Positions 3,424-52,915 of a stretch of 64,000 nt of DNA are shown one piece after another (the stretch's first letter is position 1; the number at the start of each line of letters is the position of its first letter). A program made the translations under genes and the position numbers. Where the stretch lies: assembly GCA_013265495.1 (NCBI GenBank), contig MU057711.1, forward strand, positions 868,001 through 932,000, read 5' to 3'. The notes below the pieces were generated by a model. It made no database searches, was not told where the DNA came from, and saw only the letters and a program-made list of their open reading frames with translations. The stretch comes from Vicugna vicugna. Taxonomy: Eukaryota.

Positions 3424-3600
3424 GGGGAGACTATAGCTCAGTGGTAGAGTGCATGTTAAGCATGCACAAGGTCCTGGGTTCAATCCCCAGTACCTCCATC
3501 AAATAAATAAACCTAATTACCTCCCCTCTCAAATAAATAAAATAATAAAATAAAATAAAAAATAAAATAAAATAAAATAAAATAAATAAAATAAAATAAA
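3424..3600 (+). mobile_element. Camelid tRNA-derived SINE (Vic-1-like) with (AAAAT)n tail
   Basis: A box tagctcagtggtagag, B box ggttcaatccc, family core cctaattacctccc, long A-rich tail. Confidence 0.9.
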
Positions 3601-10092: not shown

Positions 10093-10880
10093 ACAATCAA
10101 CTGCTGAAAAGAGTTAACAATTTACCCTTGACAGCCGCTTATCAAAGAATGGTAAATATTCAACTGCTAGAAATGGGCAGTCCGATCACTGTCCTATATC
10201 CGTGCTCATGGCTTCTATGACTTTGACAAATCAGCTACACCATCTGATTTTCCGGACACACGAACTGGACTTCTCTGAATGTCAGAGCAAACAAATACTG
10301 AATCTTTCCAGGAACGGGAAAAGAAAAACCTACGCAACGCTGTGGCCCAGATTATCCACATTTCTAAATTACATATCTGGGAGTCGAGAAAGCCCCCAAA
10401 CGAAGCGACAAATGAAGCCGAGAAAAACCAAGATTTACAATAAGAAGCTGAAGCCTCCCTGGCAAGCGGTTCACGCGATCTCCTCTCTAACGACATAAAC
10501 AAGGGAGGAGACTGCATTCTCCCACCGCACAATGACGGCTCAGGCCGGAGCCGGAGAGAGAACGCGGCGCAACTGGGGACGACCGCTCCCGGGGTCGGGG
10601 GCAGGCAGAGGAGGCCAAGGACGGCCGAGTCGCCGCGCCCGCCCCCGGGCCTCGGGGCGGTGCGGGGAGGGGCCGGAGGGAAGGGCCGGCCACTGCCCGC
10701 ACTCAGCTGACCTCCGCCATGTTGGCCGCACACCCCGGGACCCTTCACAACAAAGGCCGGCACCGGGGCGCGGGGAGCGCCGGACGCCTCCCCAAGCCGG
10801 GCCCGCCTCCCCGGCGCGCGGGGGCCGGGCCGGGCGGCGAGGAGGCCCTTCCCCGCCCCCGCCGGGCCCCGCGGGGCCGA

Positions 10881-10901
10881 NNNNNNNNNNNNNNNNNNNN
10901 N
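10881..10901. other. Assembly gap (21 N)
   Basis: Run of N inside the GC-richest part of the island. Confidence 1.
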
Positions 10902-11079
10902 CGGCTCCGGCCGAGACAAAGGCGCCCGGGGGCGGGGGCTGCCCGCGCCCCCGCCCCAGAGGCGCGACCCGGCCCGGCCCGGCCGCCCTCCCCGCCTGCC
11001 GCCATTACCGGGCCTGGGAGTCCTCCTCCCGCGGAGCCCCTCGCGGCCGGCTCCTCCCTCCAGGCCGGGCCCCACTTAC

Positions 11080-11360
11080 CTGTGGGCGGAGAGCGCGCCT
11101 CGGACCCCGGTCCTGGCTCAAACGCGCTCCGTCGCCGCCGCCAACCCCCGCCACCGCGGGCAGCGCCACCGCCTCTTCCCCGTGCCGACACCGACGGGAC
11201 TCCCTGGGCCGCCGCCGCCGCCGCTCGAGAGCGCGCCCCGCAACGGCCGCCCCGGCTACCCCCTGGCCGCCGCCGCCGCCGCCGCCGTTTCGCGCGTCCT
11301 CGAGCCCGCCGCGCGCTCCCGCTAAATACCACACACTGCGGCGGCCGCCATGAGGAGGCG
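11080..11360 (-). other. Putative first (5'UTR) exon of an unidentified minus-strand gene; intron 1 runs leftward
   Basis: Consensus donor CAG|GTAAGT on the minus strand (exon ends 11080, GT at 11079-11078) just downstream of the promoter motifs; no ATG-led frame crosses the donor from inside the exon; TSS position is an estimate. Confidence 0.7.
11208..11287. repeat. Two short (GCC/CGG)n tracts in the putative 5'UTR
   Basis: About 5 units at ~11208-11223 and about 7 units at ~11267-11287. Confidence 0.9.
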
Positions 11361-13579
11361 CGGCACCGCGCGCCGGCGGCCCGGAGGGGGCGGGGCCTCC
11401 CGCGGGCGCGCAGGCGCGCAGGCGCAGAGGCTCCCGGGCGGCCGGCGGCGGCTTTCGCGGTCATCGCGGTGCCGGGCTTCCAGAGTGGCGGTTGGCCTCC
11501 GAACTGCTGGGCTACCGTTGCTGCGACTGAACACCTCGCGCCCAGCAAACACTGGCACATCCTGCTCTTGCCCGCAGCCGTCCCCGCCCGGGGTGACGTG
11601 GGCACTCGCCTCCCGCGTCCGGGACCCTAGTTACGCGCCCCCTGCGAGGCTTTGTTCCGCGACCCGCGGGGTCGTCCCGCTCCGCGGCCCGACTGTCACA
11701 CAGCGCCGCCTCCGGCCCTTCCCAACTCCACTTTCCCCCGCAAAAAAAACCGCGTGCCTTGGCCACCGACCGGGGACCCCACCTCTAAAGGGGAAGAGGA
11801 CCGAGCCCTTTCTTTAGGTTTGCGCCGCTCTTCTAAAAGCGGAACGAGTTTCAAAAGCTTATTTTCGCTGAAAAGTGGGTAGTGGGAAGCACTCCCTTTC
11901 CCTTGTCCTCACTTGTCTGGGAGCTTTATGAGACTCTGGGTTTTCTTTACATAAAAAATAAAAGGAAAATACCATTCACGATTCTTGACAAGGCATATAC
12001 CTGAATCAAATGCCAGTGTCAGGCATTTACAAACTTTGGACTTCCATGTGAGACCCTCCATAAAAATTAATATTACACTTGAAAACAAACGGGTACTTTT
12101 TATATGAGATTTTAGAAACCATCCAGGGAATAGTCTCCCACTATGTCCAAGCTCCCTACCAAAAGAAAATCTTTTTTAGATGGAAAGTTTTTATGCCAGC
12201 ACTGCACTGAGAACACTCAAAAGTTTCTGCCTGAAAGTGAAAGGCACACAAAGTTATGTGCTAACGCAAGCTGCCAGTTTCCAGTTTCCCCCAACAAATT
12301 TGTAGACTGTGTCTGTATTGATACTTCTGCATCTGCTCTCAACCTAATACTTTGCGTATTGTGGCTGCTCTCTTCCGCCTGAACCATTAGCTCAGTTTCT
12401 TGAGACTGGGAAAGTAAAAAACCACGTGTTCTTAACCGCAACCTACGCTACTAATATACTGCTAATAGCTGGTCCCCAAAGCCCAGGTCAGTTGAAGAAC
12501 TTGGGTGAGTTACATAGGTCCCTGCGGTTATTGGTGATGTTATTCGTTTCTTCAACAATAGGCACTACTTACAGAAGAAATCGGACAAGTACTGTCATAC
12601 CCTGTGCTTGGTTCTGCATGGAGCTTACCTAGTGAAGAAGCCATTCGTTTACCCCTTCTTCCACACAATGCTAGGTTCTGCAAATGCAGAGCCACCAGAC
12701 TAAGCATGCATTCATGGAGTAGATATAATCTAGTGGGGGACACAATCAGTCTCACAAATCTATCACTACGATTGTGAAAAATGCTAAAAGGGTGGCAGGG
12801 GAAAGGTGCCTGATGCTAAGAAGTTGTATGACAGGCCAGGTATATGACAGATGACTGACTAAAGAACCTGACGATTAGAAGGAATTAACCTGCTTGTAGG
12901 GGTTGGGGTGGGGAGTGGTAGAAAGTCGAGGACTTGAGTAAGGGAAAAGCCTTGCATAGTAGTAGAAGCCTGCCGGATTCTAAGAACTGAAAAAAATCTC
13001 CACTGCATTTTTTTTCCCTTATGGAGATGGGAAGGGACTAGGAAGGCACAAGGCACATGGATGTGATGTAGACAATGATGCTGAAGAAATCAGTAGGATT
13101 CAGAAAGTGTTGGGCTTTGTGGTCCAATGTACCCAAAGTAACGGACAACAAACACTTCTCAGTCTGGTGAGTCCAAGAAAGGATTCACTGAGGAATAAAT
13201 TGAATAAATTGGAACTGAGCCGTGGCTAAAGGGTAGGAGTTGTCCAGAGGAAGATGGAAGTCTTTCCAAGCCAAGGAAACATATGAAACAGACAATCACA
13301 AAAGAAAATGGCTCTGTCCAAGACACTGTACAGGGAGGTAGAGTTTGGTTGAGGAGACTGGCCAAAATGAGCAAAAGCTGACCAGGGAAAACACTTCTGT
13401 TTAGGCAAGAAATGAAGGCCTGAGCCAAAGAGATGGCAAAGACATGTTGAGGAGGGTCTCCGGGAGACAGAGCTGGACTGGAATCGATTGGATTTAGGGA
13501 GGGTGGGATGTGAAGAAGATCAAAGAGCTGATGCTGATGAAAATGACAAAGGTATGGTAGAAATAGGGTTAGTGGCCAT

Positions 13580-47780: not shown

Positions 47781-48434
47781 GAAAAGTTTTGTTTGTTTTT
47801 TTCTTTTAAGTGTAGCTGATAAAAGATAAAGTGTGAAAGGTGAGGGAGGGGGAATAAAAAAATGGTAAAGAGTTTTGAGATCTTTATCTTACAAAGTGAG
47901 AGAGAAGTTAGGGAGTATGTCAGGTTGATGGAAAAGAAAGTAAGTTCTGAATATTCAAATTGACTCAGGCAACAGATGGCTAGAAGAAAAGTGGATTCTA
48001 GAACTATTGAACCTTGAGAGGAGCAGCGGGGGGGAGGGTGGGGAGTAGGCAGTGTGAGGGAGGCAGGTCCTCATGTGTCACAGTGTGAGTCCATAGACGT
48101 CCTCAAAGGTGGAATTAACCACCTGAACAACTGAAATCACTAGTGGTTAAAGAGACTGCTTCTGAAGTGGGGAGCAATGCCCCCACCCCATGGAAGACAC
48201 TCTTCATCTATTATTTTAACAATATAAAGCTTTAAACCAATATAATAAATAAATGCTAAATTGCGTGATACAATCCATGAGGGCTGAAGCGGGGCTGAGA
48301 AAGGACTTTTGATGTTTCAGACCGGATAACTCTTTGCTCTTGCTACCAAACAATGTCACTAAGGCCCACTGTAGGGATAAAGGATTTTTTTGGCTTTGAA
48401 AAGTTCCTATGGCACAGGGCCTTTTTTCTTAATC

Positions 48435-49121
48435 TTTTTTTTTTAAATTTATCAAATTTATTGTTTTCTTATGCGTATGGCTATAGCAGAATATAAAAAT
48501 TAAATGATAAAAGTTTCTTTTAAGAGTGCAATTTAACTGCATCTTAAAAAAGTTCATCTATTTTTTAAAAAACTATACATACTCAGGTAAAAAAAGACTC
48601 TGACTTAAACTGAAGACTTCAGAATTAAACTCTAGAAGTAAATGCTATGGCTGTCTAAAAGTTTATACTGGCAAATTGCACACATTTTCAAATTATAATG
48701 CAATATTTGTACACAGAATAACTATATACACACTTCAATTACATTGCTGATAAATAATAGTTATCCAAGTTGTCTTGAGAAATGAGGTTTAATATAGATT
48801 CAAATTAAGTAGAAGATCAGTCTCAATTACAGCATTTCCTTCACAAATAATAAGAGATCATCCAAACATTTGCTGAGTATAAAAAAAACCCCACGCTTCG
48901 TGGTGTGTTCTGGGAGTTCCAGTATGTTTTAGATGAGGAATGTTGACCATGAAGGAGCTCACTGCTGTGCTCACTGCTAAAGCTGGAGGAACTCTGGTCC
49001 AAAGGAGGGCCTGCCCTCCCTCCACTGGCCTCAGTGCCGCTCAGGTGGGGATCTGACTGAGTGAGTGAATGCAGCCTGGCAGTTTGGGAGGCCTGAGCGG
49101 AGGGGAGGGAACAGCACAGCT
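48435..49121 (-). other. 3'UTR, poly(A) signal and genomic poly(A) remnant of the cTAGE-like retrocopy
   Basis: AT-rich UTR; AATAAA on minus at 48462-48457 followed about 12 nt later by an A10 run (48444-48435). Confidence 0.75.
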
Positions 49122-49829
49122 TTAAGACGAGGGCCCACTCCTGGGAAAGGGACCATCAGGACTTGGTGCTCGGTCCCCTGGCTGGTGTGTAAAAGCCCCT
49201 TGTGATGTGCTGATTCTCGTGACCTCTTCCAGGAACTTGAGCAGTCTTAGCATCTCCGCCCTCTCTTCTTGAATAGACTGCAGGGATGTCTCTTTTCTCA
49301 GTTCTTGGATGAGAGAATCGATTTCCTTCCTCAAGCTCAGGTTGACTGTCATCAACTTTGTGTAAGTGTCAACGAGGCTGGGTATATTTACTGGCTCCTT
49401 CTCTAGCCTGGCGCTCTTTACAGTTGTCTCCATCTTGGCATACTCCTTTTTAGCCATGCAAAGCTGGTCAATGAGGTGGCGTTTCTCATCAGTCCGTGAA
49501 CCCAGTGCTTTTGCCAGTTGCTTTTTATGTCTTCTGTTAAGTTCGCTTCTAACAGACTGAATAAGTCTGAAAGTAAATAAAATGCCCAGCAATAAGGTGA
49601 GGACAGGCAGACTCAACGCTGTCTCCCCGTGGAGGATCTGGAACATGAACTGAGAACATAGGTGACTGAACAGCAGCATAACCAGGACTGCACTCAGCTT
49701 CCTAAGGGTCAGCCCAAAGCCAAGCTCCACAGAGGACAGGAGCCCCTCCATGGCACTGACCCACCCAGGGCTCTGCCCAGTTACCATGGAGCCACCAGCC
49801 ACAACAAGCCCCAGAGGACCCCCCAACAT
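49122..49829 (-). CDS. CTAGE5-like: Intronless cTAGE5/MIA2-family retrogene or retropseudogene with open frame (hydrophobic N-terminus, first coiled coil, short Pro-rich tail); likely start 49751 (209 aa)
   Basis: FRLIQSVRSELNRRHKKQLAKALGSRTDEKRHLIDQLCMAKKEY...SARLEKE...SLVDTYTKL...LRKEIDSLIQELRKE is colinear with cTAGE5 as recalled ([44 protein letters not shown]...DASFEKE...SLEATCEKL...LEDEILCLEKELKEE); gccATGG Kozak at 49751 gives MEGLL...FGLTLRKL, similar to MEEPG...LGLLLEEL. Confidence 0.8.
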   Translation of the reverse strand: MLGGPLGLVVAGGSMVTGQSPGWVSAMEGLLSSVELGFGLTLRKLSAVLVMLLFSHLCSQFMFQILHGETALSLPVLTLLLGILFTFRLIQSVRSELNRRHKKQLAKALGSRTDEKRHLIDQLCMAKKEYAKMETTVKSARLEKEPVNIPSLVDTYTKLMTVNLSLRKEIDSLIQELRKETSLQSIQEERAEMLRLLKFLEEVTRISTSQGAFTHQPGDRAPSPDGPFPRSGPSS

Positions 49830-49844
49830 TCCACCTGGAACCCA

Positions 49845-49865
49845 ACTGACGTCCTGGATTGGTCA
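49845..49865 (-). promoter_or_regulatory. Candidate proximal promoter motifs of the retrocopy (CCAAT box and CRE-like site)
   Basis: Minus strand CCAATccagGACGTCA: CCAAT at 49862-49858; TGACGTC on plus at 49847-49853 with the CpG retained. Confidence 0.4.
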
Positions 49866-50924
49866 GTTATCTGGTCAGTGTCGGTGGGGAGGAGGCGTGG
49901 CTGTCAGAGGAGAGGGTTGTAACTAAAATATCATTTTCTCCATTATTGTCTAATGGCAATTTTTTCTGACCTCTTTTTTTTTGTTTGTATTTGTATACCA
50001 TAAAAAATAAAGTGAAATGTGTCAATGTAAAGTTTATGATTTCACAAATCTTTCAAACTCCTAACCCTCAACAGTATCATAAAAGTCAGTGTATGAACCA
50101 TATGTTTGAATCACATCCGTTAACACAGAATATATACCCTCCATCACATTTCAGTAGAAATACACACACTCTCACGACATGTATCCATCAGTCTGAAGGT
50201 GGCTGAACTTGATGAAAATTAACAAAAAAACCACAATGTATACTTTGATGTCTGTCTCTTTTGCTCTAAGGAATGTTTTTACAGCTACATGTTACTATTT
50301 GAATATGCCATTCATTCTGTTTGTAGGGCTGAATAATTTGACCTTGTAAGATTATATCACAAAATATTAATACATTCTCTTAATAATGGACATTTGGGTT
50401 AGTTCAAGTGTGGGTTATTATGAATAAATATTTTTGTATATATATAGATGCATCTGTTTTCTAAATATCTGTTTTCATTTATCCTGTGGGACGCATACCT
50501 GGGAGCAGGTCTAATGGGTAGATCTGTGCTAAATACTCTTTCATTTTGAAAGAGATTTCTTTAGGCATAATTTACATGCCATAAATTCACTCATTTAAAT
50601 ACAAAATTCTTATTTTTTTTGTGTGTGTAAATGTGCAGAGTTGTGTCTCCCTCACAATCCCATTTTAGAACAAGTTTATCACAGGAAAAAAAGATTTCTC
50701 AATTCACACTTCTTTATTGGCTTCATTTGACACAGTCTCTCTTTCTCTTTGGAATGCTTCCATGATATAAATTCCAGTTCAATGCATTCTACCATTTTTA
50801 TAATTGTTTTTGTTGTTGGTTTCTGTTTTTTTTATGAACTCACTGGCCTTTCTTTCTGTGACTCCACTGATAGTTTCTACTTTTCTTTCAAACCTTTGGC
50901 ATTAGTTTGACTCAGGAATTAGTT

Positions 50925-51268
50925 CTTTTTTTTTTTTTTTTTCATAGTTTACATTAGGGTTTACTCTTGATATTGTACGTTCTATGGGTTTTGACAAGTG
51001 TATAATGAGATGTAGCCACTATAGTATCATACAGAATAATTTCATTGCCCTAAAAATCCTTGTGCTCCACTTATTCATTCCTCCTTCCCTCTCCTCAAAC
51101 CCCTGGAAACCACAATCTTTTTATTGTTTCTGTAGCTGTGCCTTTTCCAGAATGTCATTTGGTTGGAATCATACAGTTTTTAGCCCTTTTGGACTGGCTT
51201 CTTTCATTTGTAATATGTCTTTCAAGTTTCTTCTATGGCTTTCATGGCTTGATAGATCATTTTTTTAA
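50925..51268 (-). mobile_element. Old LINE-1 3'UTR fragment (L1MC-like)
   Basis: poly(T) then catagtttacattaggg...ctatgggttttgacaagtgtataatga...tgccttttccagaatgtcat. Confidence 0.8.
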
Positions 51269-51369
51269 TGCACATGTATCTTTTAATTTACATATATGTA
51301 CTGTTCATTGTTTCTAAGAACGTTTAGAGATTTAGCTTTTTAAACTTACATAGTTATCAAAGAACAAAG

Positions 51370-51955
51370 CCAACCACAAAATAAGAATTAATTCAAAAAA
51401 TACATACACCCTGCTATTAACAGCAACATTATTTATAATTGCCAAGATATGGAAGCATCCTAAGTGCATATCAATAGTTGAATAGATAATGGAGATGCAA
51501 AATATATATATATATATATAAAATATATATACACACACACATATGTATATGTATACATATATATATGTAATGAAATACAACTCACCCATAAAAAAGAAGG
51601 ATATTTTGCCATTTGTGGCCCTTCATTCACTTTTTTTTTTCACTTCAAAAACCAGAATTTTATAACTGGCAGAGACATTTCAATTACATTAAAAACAACA
51701 AAATACTCAGAAATAAACTTAACCAAGGAGGTTACCTATACTCTGAAAACCAAAATGACACAAGGAAATGGAAAGATTTCTTGTGCTCTTGGATTGGAAG
51801 AATCAACACTATCAAAATGGCCACACTACCCAAAGCAATCCACAGGTCCAATGCAACCCCCATCAATATACTCAAGACATTCCTCACAGAACTAGAACAA
51901 ACAACTTCAAAATTTATGAGGAACCACAAAAGACCCCGAGAAGCCAAAGCAATCT
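51370..51955 (+). mobile_element. LINE-1 fragments (ORF2-end piece, then mid-ORF2 piece)
   Basis: gccaagatatggaagcatcctaagtg... then peptide KWKDFLCSWIGRINTIKMATLPKAIHRSNATPI. Confidence 0.88.
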
Positions 51956-52004
51956 TTTGTAGATTTTTTTTCTCTTTTTTCTTTTTATTCTCTTTTCTTA
52001 TGGT

Positions 52005-52915
52005 TTGATGACTAGAGAAGTTCCTTTAACATTTGTTGTAAAGCTGGTTTGGTGGTGCTGAAATCTTTTAGCTTTTGTTTAGCTGTGAATCTTTTGATTT
52101 CTCCATCAAGTCTGAACAAGAGCCTGGCTGGATAGAGTGTTCTTGGTTGTAAGTTTCCCCCTTGCATCACTTTAAACATATCGTGCCACTCCCTTCTGGC
52201 CTGTAGAGTTGCTGCTGTAAGATCAGCTGATAACCTTATGGGAGCTCCCTTGTATGTTATTTGTTGCTTTTCTCTTGCTAATTTTTATATTTTCTCCTTC
52301 TCCTTAATTGTCAACTCGGCAACTATGTGCCTTGGTGTGTTCCTCTTTGGGTTGATTCTGTGTGGTACTGTCTGCACTTCCAGGACTTGGGTGACTGTTT
52401 CCTTTCCCAAGTTGGGGAAGTTGTCAGTTATTATTTCTCCCCAAATTTTCTCAGGTCCTTCCTCTCTCTCTTCTCTTTCTGGGAACCCTATAATGTGAAT
52501 ATCAGAGCGCTTCATGTTGTCCCAGAGTGCTCTTAAACTGTCCTCATGCCTTTTTATTCTTTTTTCTGTTCTGAAGTAGTGATTTCCACTAATCTGTCTT
52601 CTAGCTCACTGATCCGTTCTGCCTCATTTAGTCTATTCTTGGTTCCTTCTAGTGTATTGTTCATTTCACTGATTTTATTCTTCAGCTCTGTTTGGGTGTT
52701 CTTATATTTCCCAACTCTTTGCTAAAAACGTCACTCTGTGCATCTATACTCCTCTCAAGTTCTCCAAACCTCTTCACCATCATTGCTTTAAACTATTTTC
52801 TCAGATAAATTACCTATCTCCTTATCACTTATTTCTTCTTCTGGGATTTTATCTTGTGCCTTGGCCTGGGAGATATTCCTTTGACGCCTCTTAATCTTCT
52901 TTATTTCCTGGATTG
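52005..52915 (-). mobile_element. LINE-1 ORF1 fragment
   Basis: Peptide MKRSDIHIIGFPEREEREEGPEKIWGEIITDNFPNLGKE...RINPKRNTPRHIV is L1 ORF1p-like. Confidence 0.92.

Follow-up and report, generated by a model that had tools for sequence, protein, structure and literature searches.

An L1 derivative that encodes only ORF1 may have served as a gene amplifier in camelids. It would have captured a short derivative of cTAGE5/MIA2 (here mini-cTAGE) together with its promoter and, over several rounds of transduction, produced about 20 or more expressed, host-selected camelid membrane proteins that stayed open for tens of millions of years while diversifying, a scenario that we judge to be evenly poised. 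The account that best explains the whole of the results, which joins an old mini-gene, a HAL1-like carrier, transduction and host selection, is in our view probably correct. The copy at the centre of this analysis lies in a window of 64,000 nucleotides from Vicugna vicugna (contig MU057711.1, positions 868,001 to 932,000). There are precedents for HAL1 elements, for 3' transduction and for cTAGE retrocopies taken singly; their combination, its scale and the excess of open frames did not turn up in the literature searched. That literature, with subscription papers, repeat databases and supplements outside the search, described neither the gene family nor the element for camelids.

Table 1. Parts of the insertion that carries mini-cTAGE, in the direction of transcription (coordinates are window positions).
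Feature	Position	Strand	Details
5' copy of target-site duplication	52889..52902	(-)	14 bp, 13/14 matching, 10-bp exact core
L1 ORF1 remnant	52012..52888	(-)	Broken: 3 frameshifts, 1 stop; Pfam Tnp_22_dsRBD E 8e-23, Transposase_22 E 3e-11
3' tail of ORF1-only (HAL1-like) element	50943..52011	(-)	Inter-ORF A-rich piece first
Internal poly(A), A17	50926..50942	(-)	Natural 3' end of stand-alone element, preceded by AGTAAA-type signal
Ancient upstream flank of mini-cTAGE gene, transduced	49863..50925	(-)	Colinear with non-camelid contig L041
Putative promoter core, CCAAT box	49847..49862	(-)	Box in 15/21 copies and L041; predicted function
26-codon in-frame N-terminal extension of mini-cTAGE ORF	starts 49829	(-)	235 codons in all (49122-49829)
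Mini-cTAGE ORF, 209 codons	49122..49751	(-)	Hydrophobic N-terminus, membrane anchor, coiled-coil helices, short Pro/Gly/Ser tail
3' UTR	48445..49121	(-)	AATAAA at 48457-48462
Poly(A) remnant and 3' copy of target-site duplication	48427..48444	(-)	10-A tract 48435-48444

The first-pass annotation of this DNA had delimited a feature of 1.5 kb and read it as a diverged, internally deleted retrocopy. Its derivation from cTAGE5 stands, but the copy is part of a 4.46-kb insertion (48427-52902) and is no lone decaying retrocopy; the L1-derived head, the target-site duplication, the large copy number and the serial transduction had gone unnoticed. Poly(A), target-site duplication and 5' truncation, the marks of L1-mediated insertion, are all present (Table 1). 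Matches to the L1 ORF1p domains lie at 52012-52605, and the window copy is truncated at the start of ORF1 (52888); a further ~950 bp of L1 5' UTR precede the ORF1 ATG in 9 of the 20 other copies read, with one common start. When loci were scored by their 3' end, 39 others of 40 stopped at the poly(A) point of the window copy. The one antisense ORF scanned within the 3' tail of the element had no Pfam match, and beyond its A-rich first piece we take this tail, by eye, to consist of antisense L1 fragments and an old L1 3' end. The CCAAT box adjoins GGACGTCA in the window copy, where most copies read GGATGTCA, an upstream in-frame ATG that would give a protein of 245 aa and that was lost here through a change of ATG to ACG and a 7-bp deletion, which L021 also has. 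We considered a CRE-type promoter motif as well and dropped it, since it is present in 3 of 21 copies and is an altered ATG.

The single minus-strand ORF described by the first-pass annotation, of 235 or 209 codons without stop or frameshift, is read directly at 49122-49829, and the AATAAA and A-tract that it had placed downstream are likewise where it put them. The ATG at 49751 lies in the context GCCATGG. Frameshifts abound in the N-terminal extension (10 in 2.2 kb), so the real product is probably the 209-aa form. The proposed origin from cTAGE5/MIA2 was borne out by BLASTP against a carnivore cTAGE5/MIA2 isoform, P0091 (29% identity over 196 columns, E 2e-13), in which the Met at 49751 aligns on Met1 of cTAGE5 and residues 1-195 are covered, and by a profile of mini-cTAGE built from 19 relatives (probability 99.6, E 6e-25 against cTAGE5). 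All six long matches that were looked up carry the name MIA2/cTAGE5. The multi-exon host cTAGE5/MIA2 gene sits elsewhere in the genome, on C10971. Pfam returned no family for the window ORF (the best E, 0.0027, fell below the cut-off), and its Atlas clusters, unnamed chordate (0.97) and TANGO1-labelled (0.93), are of low recognition and serve as a lead only. A structure model of modest confidence (mean pLDDT 71.5, pTM 0.36) predicts helices at residues 22-60, 70-142 and 149-211 and a disordered tail; a Foldseek search with it against PDB gave no match at E <= 0.001.

In the portions of the sources available to us, cTAGE5 has been divided into coil1 (61-300, Sec12-binding), coil2 (301-650, TANGO1-binding) and a Pro-rich domain, PRD (651-804) (PMC4164946), of which the PRD binds Sec23/24 (PMC4164946, PMC5007089), and the protein forms homo-multimers, the responsible region not being stated in that portion (PMC5007089). 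Mini-cTAGE has in common with cTAGE5/MIA2, as described in the available portions of PMC3128532, PMC4164946 and PMC5007089, the start Met, the N-terminal membrane anchor and the first part of coil1, but is ~29% identical, intron-less and without most of residues 196-515, coil2 and the PRD. The earlier claim that the anchor and the first coiled coil were kept is thus right for the anchor (the hydrophobic peak at 72-90 of the window protein is the counterpart of 42-60 in cTAGE5), and for the coiled coil only in part, as the first ~135 residues alone of the coil1 region are retained; the cTAGE5 alignment stops at residue ~195. A jump almost directly to a short Pro-rich tail had also been described. 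There is a large internal deletion, but the cTAGE5 segment that the tail weakly resembles, 516-555, precedes the Sec23-binding PRD (651-804) and does not belong to it. Next in order, and weakly too, the beginning of the 3' UTR corresponds to 551-588. The scores of these two segments against P0091 were reached by 13/200 and 3/200 shuffles, respectively; for the first segment against crocodile and turtle proteins, 2/200 and 3/200 shuffles reached the score, and contig L041 gives no support to the mapping. Because of this placement, about residues 196-515 appear to be deleted and the frame to end before the PRD. The first ~200 bases of the 3' UTR might then be decayed cTAGE5 coding sequence, about residues 532-588, to judge from this weak resemblance.

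Short proteins of the same kind occur in other mammals. Nine matches of 199-291 aa share 38-68% identity with the window protein, and a wider protein library holds 87 relatives, among which full-length MIA2 scores far lower. Named short relatives come from arctic fox (210 aa, 54%), wolf, a bat, ground squirrel, tree shrew and two camels; a profile search with the family alignment found no further named ones. Several have a short GPFPRSGP-like tail at the same position, and the C-terminal end and length of the window protein are common to the fox and other mammalian relatives. At the DNA level, a non-camelid contig (L041, the one confirmed among 548 pattern matches) is colinear with the window at ~74% (50832-50269) and 71% (50181-48748), sharing the upstream flank, CCAAT box, intron-less coding region and 3' UTR, with a coding region that is broken there. 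Given the same length, the same C-terminal tail and the colinear contig, the deletion and most of the divergence predate the window copy and did not arise in it. A protein tree of 30 rows unites the eight copies from this genome with a Camelus ferus protein and one unnamed row (support 100/100); this clade stands apart from three MIA2 rows, and deeper forks are mostly unsupported. The results point to a short cTAGE5 derivative, conserved across placental mammals and so far without a name, that constitutes a natural truncation separating the Sec12-binding region of cTAGE5 from its TANGO1- and Sec23-binding regions.

Multiplication of the short gene does not seem to be confined to camelids. One identical sequence stands under four wolf accessions (the P0029 cluster), and a clade of related unnamed proteins is ~77% identical (P0005, P0009, P0012, with L041 also listed). 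The NCBI names on the short relatives, 'cTAGE family member 9' in fox and 'antigen 8' in tree shrew, are probably best-hit labels. The primate CTAGE retrogene family (CTAGE1/4/6/8/9/15) resembles mini-cTAGE in being a set of cTAGE5-derived retrocopies expanded within one lineage, but its members are near full length.

The head of the insertion also exists on its own. When the initial 3.57 kb of a full copy were used as query, the match ended at position ~2853, which is the internal A17, in 30 of the 40 best loci; four continue into the gene flank and six stop earlier, the stand-alone copies being judged from search tables. A motif across the ORF1-end junction occurs at 438 places (control 0). 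The majority ORF1 is open for 297 codons and the element has no sense ORF2; with its own poly(A) end, it therefore fits the definition of a HAL1 (half-L1) element, an L1 5' UTR plus ORF1 only (PMC5753468, available portion). Like HAL1 elements, the carrier combines these two parts with a poly(A) end and an independent origin in a mammalian lineage; unlike them, a subset of its copies bears a complete host gene. The literature passages searched, with Repbase and Dfam outside the search, held no camelid HAL1 name. A shorter ORF1-only form, ending ~330-440 bp earlier, was seen on C11982, C12401 (three loci), C10753:988594 and C9934, and is possibly an older subfamily. At L026:3714-6771, a 3-kb nested insertion with another L1 ORF1-like piece divides a copy whose mini-cTAGE frame is open.

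The number of paralogs, which the first-pass annotation had named as a check, is high: the genome gave at least 154 protein matches, with 150 of 479 candidates scored, and, by hand count of the search table, about 85 dispersed loci, together with array-like copies on small contigs, all of these counts being lower bounds. We put the loci reached by read-through of the gene and its upstream flank at roughly 70-85. A 22-mer from the 5' end of the ORF was matched 55 times with at most one mismatch and 115 times with at most three (control 2). Beside the window copy, the 20 best protein matches were read, which makes 21 copies; 19 of the 20 share its poly(A) end, with variable 5' ends. The window copy groups with L021 and L022 (support 100). 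L021 (C699:1189405-1194771) lies ~275 kb away on the same contig in the opposite orientation, and because its stop codon is deleted, its frame runs on to 281 aa. A more distant subfamily (36-44% identity over about residues 20-181, mostly with 2-4 stops) was observed at C2580:42137-79913 and on C868, C9603, C6368, C9118 and further small contigs, where its members repeat in tandem every ~5.3 kb or so and are possibly ampliconic or satellite-like. Many copies break off at residues ~170-192 (C6276, C7773, C677, C11792:3293917, C3687:7834543, C6267:3914880, C12402:7274935, C4265, C5010 and C9280), which suggests either a hot spot for indels or a subfamily whose C-terminus differs; a number of non-camelid relatives diverge there too.

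Copies have begotten copies. L027 is the source of five 3'-tagged daughters: a target-site duplication of its own surrounds it, and a stretch of ~620 bp from its 3' flank recurs behind five other copies (six matches in all). In the three tagged copies that were read (L033, L035, L038), the tag leads into a poly(A) and a new duplication of their own, and in L027 it runs on as plain flank. The marks of 3' transduction are thus present in the older flank shared with L041, the internal and terminal poly(A), the duplication around the whole unit and the second-round tags, and the simplest reading is a read-through from one ORF1-only element into the mini-cTAGE gene. 3' transduction has often been proposed as a route to new genes. 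Whole-gene duplications by this route in mammals are, to our knowledge, few and small (AMAC), and Xing and colleagues reportedly described three AMAC copies made by SVA transduction. As with SVA and AMAC (the available portion of PMC8277862, citing Xing et al. 2006), a non-autonomous, L1-mobilised element has here duplicated a whole downstream gene, with further amplification; in contrast, the carrier is an ORF1-only L1 derivative, roughly 70-85 loci stand against a few, and there are serial transduction through flank tags and an excess of open frames after ~6% divergence. The NUKU (KU70) retrogenes are also an L1-made, multi-copy family of which some copies were kept (10.1101/2020.12.02.408492, available portion), but they arose as ordinary retrocopies of the mRNA of a spliced parent, and neither a carrier element nor a transduced promoter region is involved.

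Among the 21 copies read, 16 are open, four are cut within the last 13-16 codons and one is cut at codon 130. The 20 read beside the window copy had been chosen by protein score, which biases both this count and the contrast in indels (4 frameshifting indels in 13.2 kb of ORF versus 3.9-7.2 per kb in other regions, at a similar rate of in-frame indels); only a count of loci ranked by flank corrects for it. When ranked by the non-coding upstream flank alone, 12 of 40 loci are verified open, with the other 28 judged from search tables or unclear and unread loci counted as not open, against 0.3-1.8 expected from a neutral probability of staying open of 0.8-4.6% (indel rates of the same insertions plus simulated stops). 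At the most lenient rate this has P 1.5e-7; without the window copy and one segmental duplicate, 10 of 38 are open (P 6e-6), and 14 or more open frames even among 125 loci would have P 0.002. Ranked by 3' end, 10 of 40 are verified open, unread loci again counted as not open. The earlier expectation that a decaying copy would hardly stay open therefore holds for the family; for the window copy alone the same 0.8-4.6% applies to a copy picked for being open. The L1 ORF1 served as a control within the same insertions: it is disabled in all 13 of the 13 copies in which it is present, despite an open majority sequence, which indicates that the insertions are old, and its stop-making changes (21) are close to the 23.9 of the neutral model. 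Rate estimates left out L028 (assembly gap) and L034 (divergent), and pooled ORF1 and spacer substitution rates are inflated by the gap in L028. In three copies (L023, L030, L033), one and the same codon, CGA in open copies, has become a stop, probably through recurrent CpG decay; it lies 16 residues from the end, so that these copies keep 193 of 209 residues. The open-frame excess suggests that the element built a working gene family.

The amino acid sequence itself is under little constraint. Omega is 0.85 in the 16 open copies and 0.84 in 11 dead ORF1s (L028 and L032 being left out of this codon control), and neither differs from 1 (P 0.10 and 0.09). Because dN/dS equals that of the dead control, we do not claim positive selection, and the fast evolution under selection proposed earlier finds no backing. 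Site classes labelled 'constrained' and 'positive' gave 2dL of 59 and 26 in the ORF and of 31 and 37 in the ORF1 control; the M2a statistic, significant on its face, is exceeded by 1 of 19 neutral simulations (the heterogeneity statistic by none of 19), and positive selection by M2a was rejected as not going beyond the control or all simulations. Measured against the non-coding spectrum in 13 copies (L028, L034 and L040 left out), the overall N/S is 0.96; it falls to 0.76 at the 79 sites that other mammals conserve and is 1.06 elsewhere, from which we conclude that the frame is kept and the sequence weakly constrained. At the conserved sites five truncated copies have 0.91, not clearly different from 0.76 at such a sample size, and the window copy alone has an overall N/S of 1.23. 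A test on distinct states was set aside, since synonymous states (103 versus 120) fell short as well as amino-acid states (234 versus 328) and it had no control. The share of words was 0.17-0.18 in four RNA-seq runs labelled reproductive system and 0.13-0.20 in ten possible RNA runs, which is no evidence of expression.

Could the dispersed copies all be passengers of the same spread, with only the parent gene at work and the open frames due to chance and ascertainment? An omega near 1, equal to that of dead ORF1, agrees with this, as do the broken or split appearance of most loci in the search table and the fact that copy counts are lower bounds. The flank-ranked counts nevertheless exceed the 1.8 open loci expected at most, the count among 125 loci stays significant, and the neutral model behind both reproduces the ORF1 stop count, so that we consider this reading unlikely. 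Selection might instead act on the element, if an open frame stabilised the RNA or aided mobilisation and open copies were lineages still jumping. That copies beget copies, and that the one proven source, L027, is open, speak for it; yet the terminal branches of open copies are long (0.04-0.07 for 11 of 16) and their ORF1s decayed privately, L027 has long been open in place, since its transduced flank differs by 7-10% from that of its daughters, and no daughter of the window copy was found among the 40 of 59 candidates scored. Selection on the element is accordingly improbable in our estimation.

Growth by segmental duplication, or frames repaired by gene conversion, would account for L028 and L029, which share both flanks (99.8% on the 3' side), for close pairs and a roughly 5.3-kb-period array on small contigs, and for L034, in which the gene part is more diverged than the L1 part. 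Against this, the flanks of most copies are unrelated, clear target-site duplications border several of them, and the window ORF has a median of 86.2% to other copies versus 89.5% for ORF1 and 89.8% for the spacer, the opposite of homogenisation; we regard such an origin of the family as very improbable. The order of events could also be reversed, the L1 5' part having been rearranged beside the gene first and the 2.85-kb element having arisen by premature polyadenylation of the long unit. The tail of the head does hold old-looking repeat fragments like those of the gene flank, as judged by eye, and the parent locus, an element inserted upstream of the gene, was not among the 21 loci read. However, the long copies contain an A-run exactly at the stand-alone end, where premature polyadenylation would leave none unless the run was already genomic, and stand-alone copies far outnumber gene-bearing ones, which makes the reversed order rather unlikely.

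Under the preferred account, in which an old mini-gene was carried off by a HAL1-like element and its copies were then selected by the host, an intron-less, internally deleted cTAGE5 derivative of ~205-210 aa would have existed in early placental mammals, the relatives attesting the gene and its distribution suggesting the date. In camelid ancestors, a non-autonomous 2.85-kb L1 derivative (5' UTR promoter, ORF1, no ORF2, weak poly(A) site) would have spread to several hundred sites, one of its copies landing ~1.2 kb upstream of the mini-cTAGE gene; the structure is read from the copies, and the order of these steps is presumed. Transcripts running past the weak site would have ended at the AATAAA of the gene and been reinserted, as the 5.4-kb units and 5'-truncated pieces with poly(A) and target-site duplications document, with ORF2p of intact L1s as the putative motor. 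Inserted copies became new sources because the full unit carries its own L1 promoter, and many could be expressed because the upstream flank of the gene travelled along. Host selection would then have kept about a quarter of the copies open, the window copy among them, as the statistical excess of open frames supports, with most residues drifting.

This burst predates the Camelus-Lama split, given the ~6% non-coding divergence of the window copy from the family majority and the Camelus protein inside the family. The same divergence, and an L1 ORF1 with three frameshifts and a stop, contradict the suggestion that the copy is recent. With usual mammalian rates, the burst would be about 20-40 million years old. 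The lack of young TE families in alpaca, as stated in the available portion of PMC3183009, agrees with the age of the burst.

As to function, we tentatively propose from sequence features that the protein is an ER-membrane coiled-coil adaptor, most likely of germ cells, that modulates cTAGE5/Sec12 complexes, and that it may have been selected for dosage or diversity. Since part of the Sec12-binding coil1 is kept and the TANGO1-binding coil2 and Sec23/24-binding PRD are lost, it would tune or compete with cTAGE5 complexes and not replace them. Since this one genome has dozens of copies of similar age, in which the dead L1 ORF1 of each insertion acts as an internal neutral control and flank tags link parents to daughters, it can be tested here how often a gene persists after transduction with its promoter, and at which insertion sites it does so.

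Elsewhere in the window, the 80 longest of 300 other open stretches had no Pfam match, and Rfam reported only seven tRNA-like matches of 72 bases each (at 3427, 15712, 18757, 27329, 45639, 53490 and 57241), presumably copies of a tRNA-derived SINE. A CpG island at 10500-11750 contains a likely non-coding first exon on the minus strand, with a donor near 11079.
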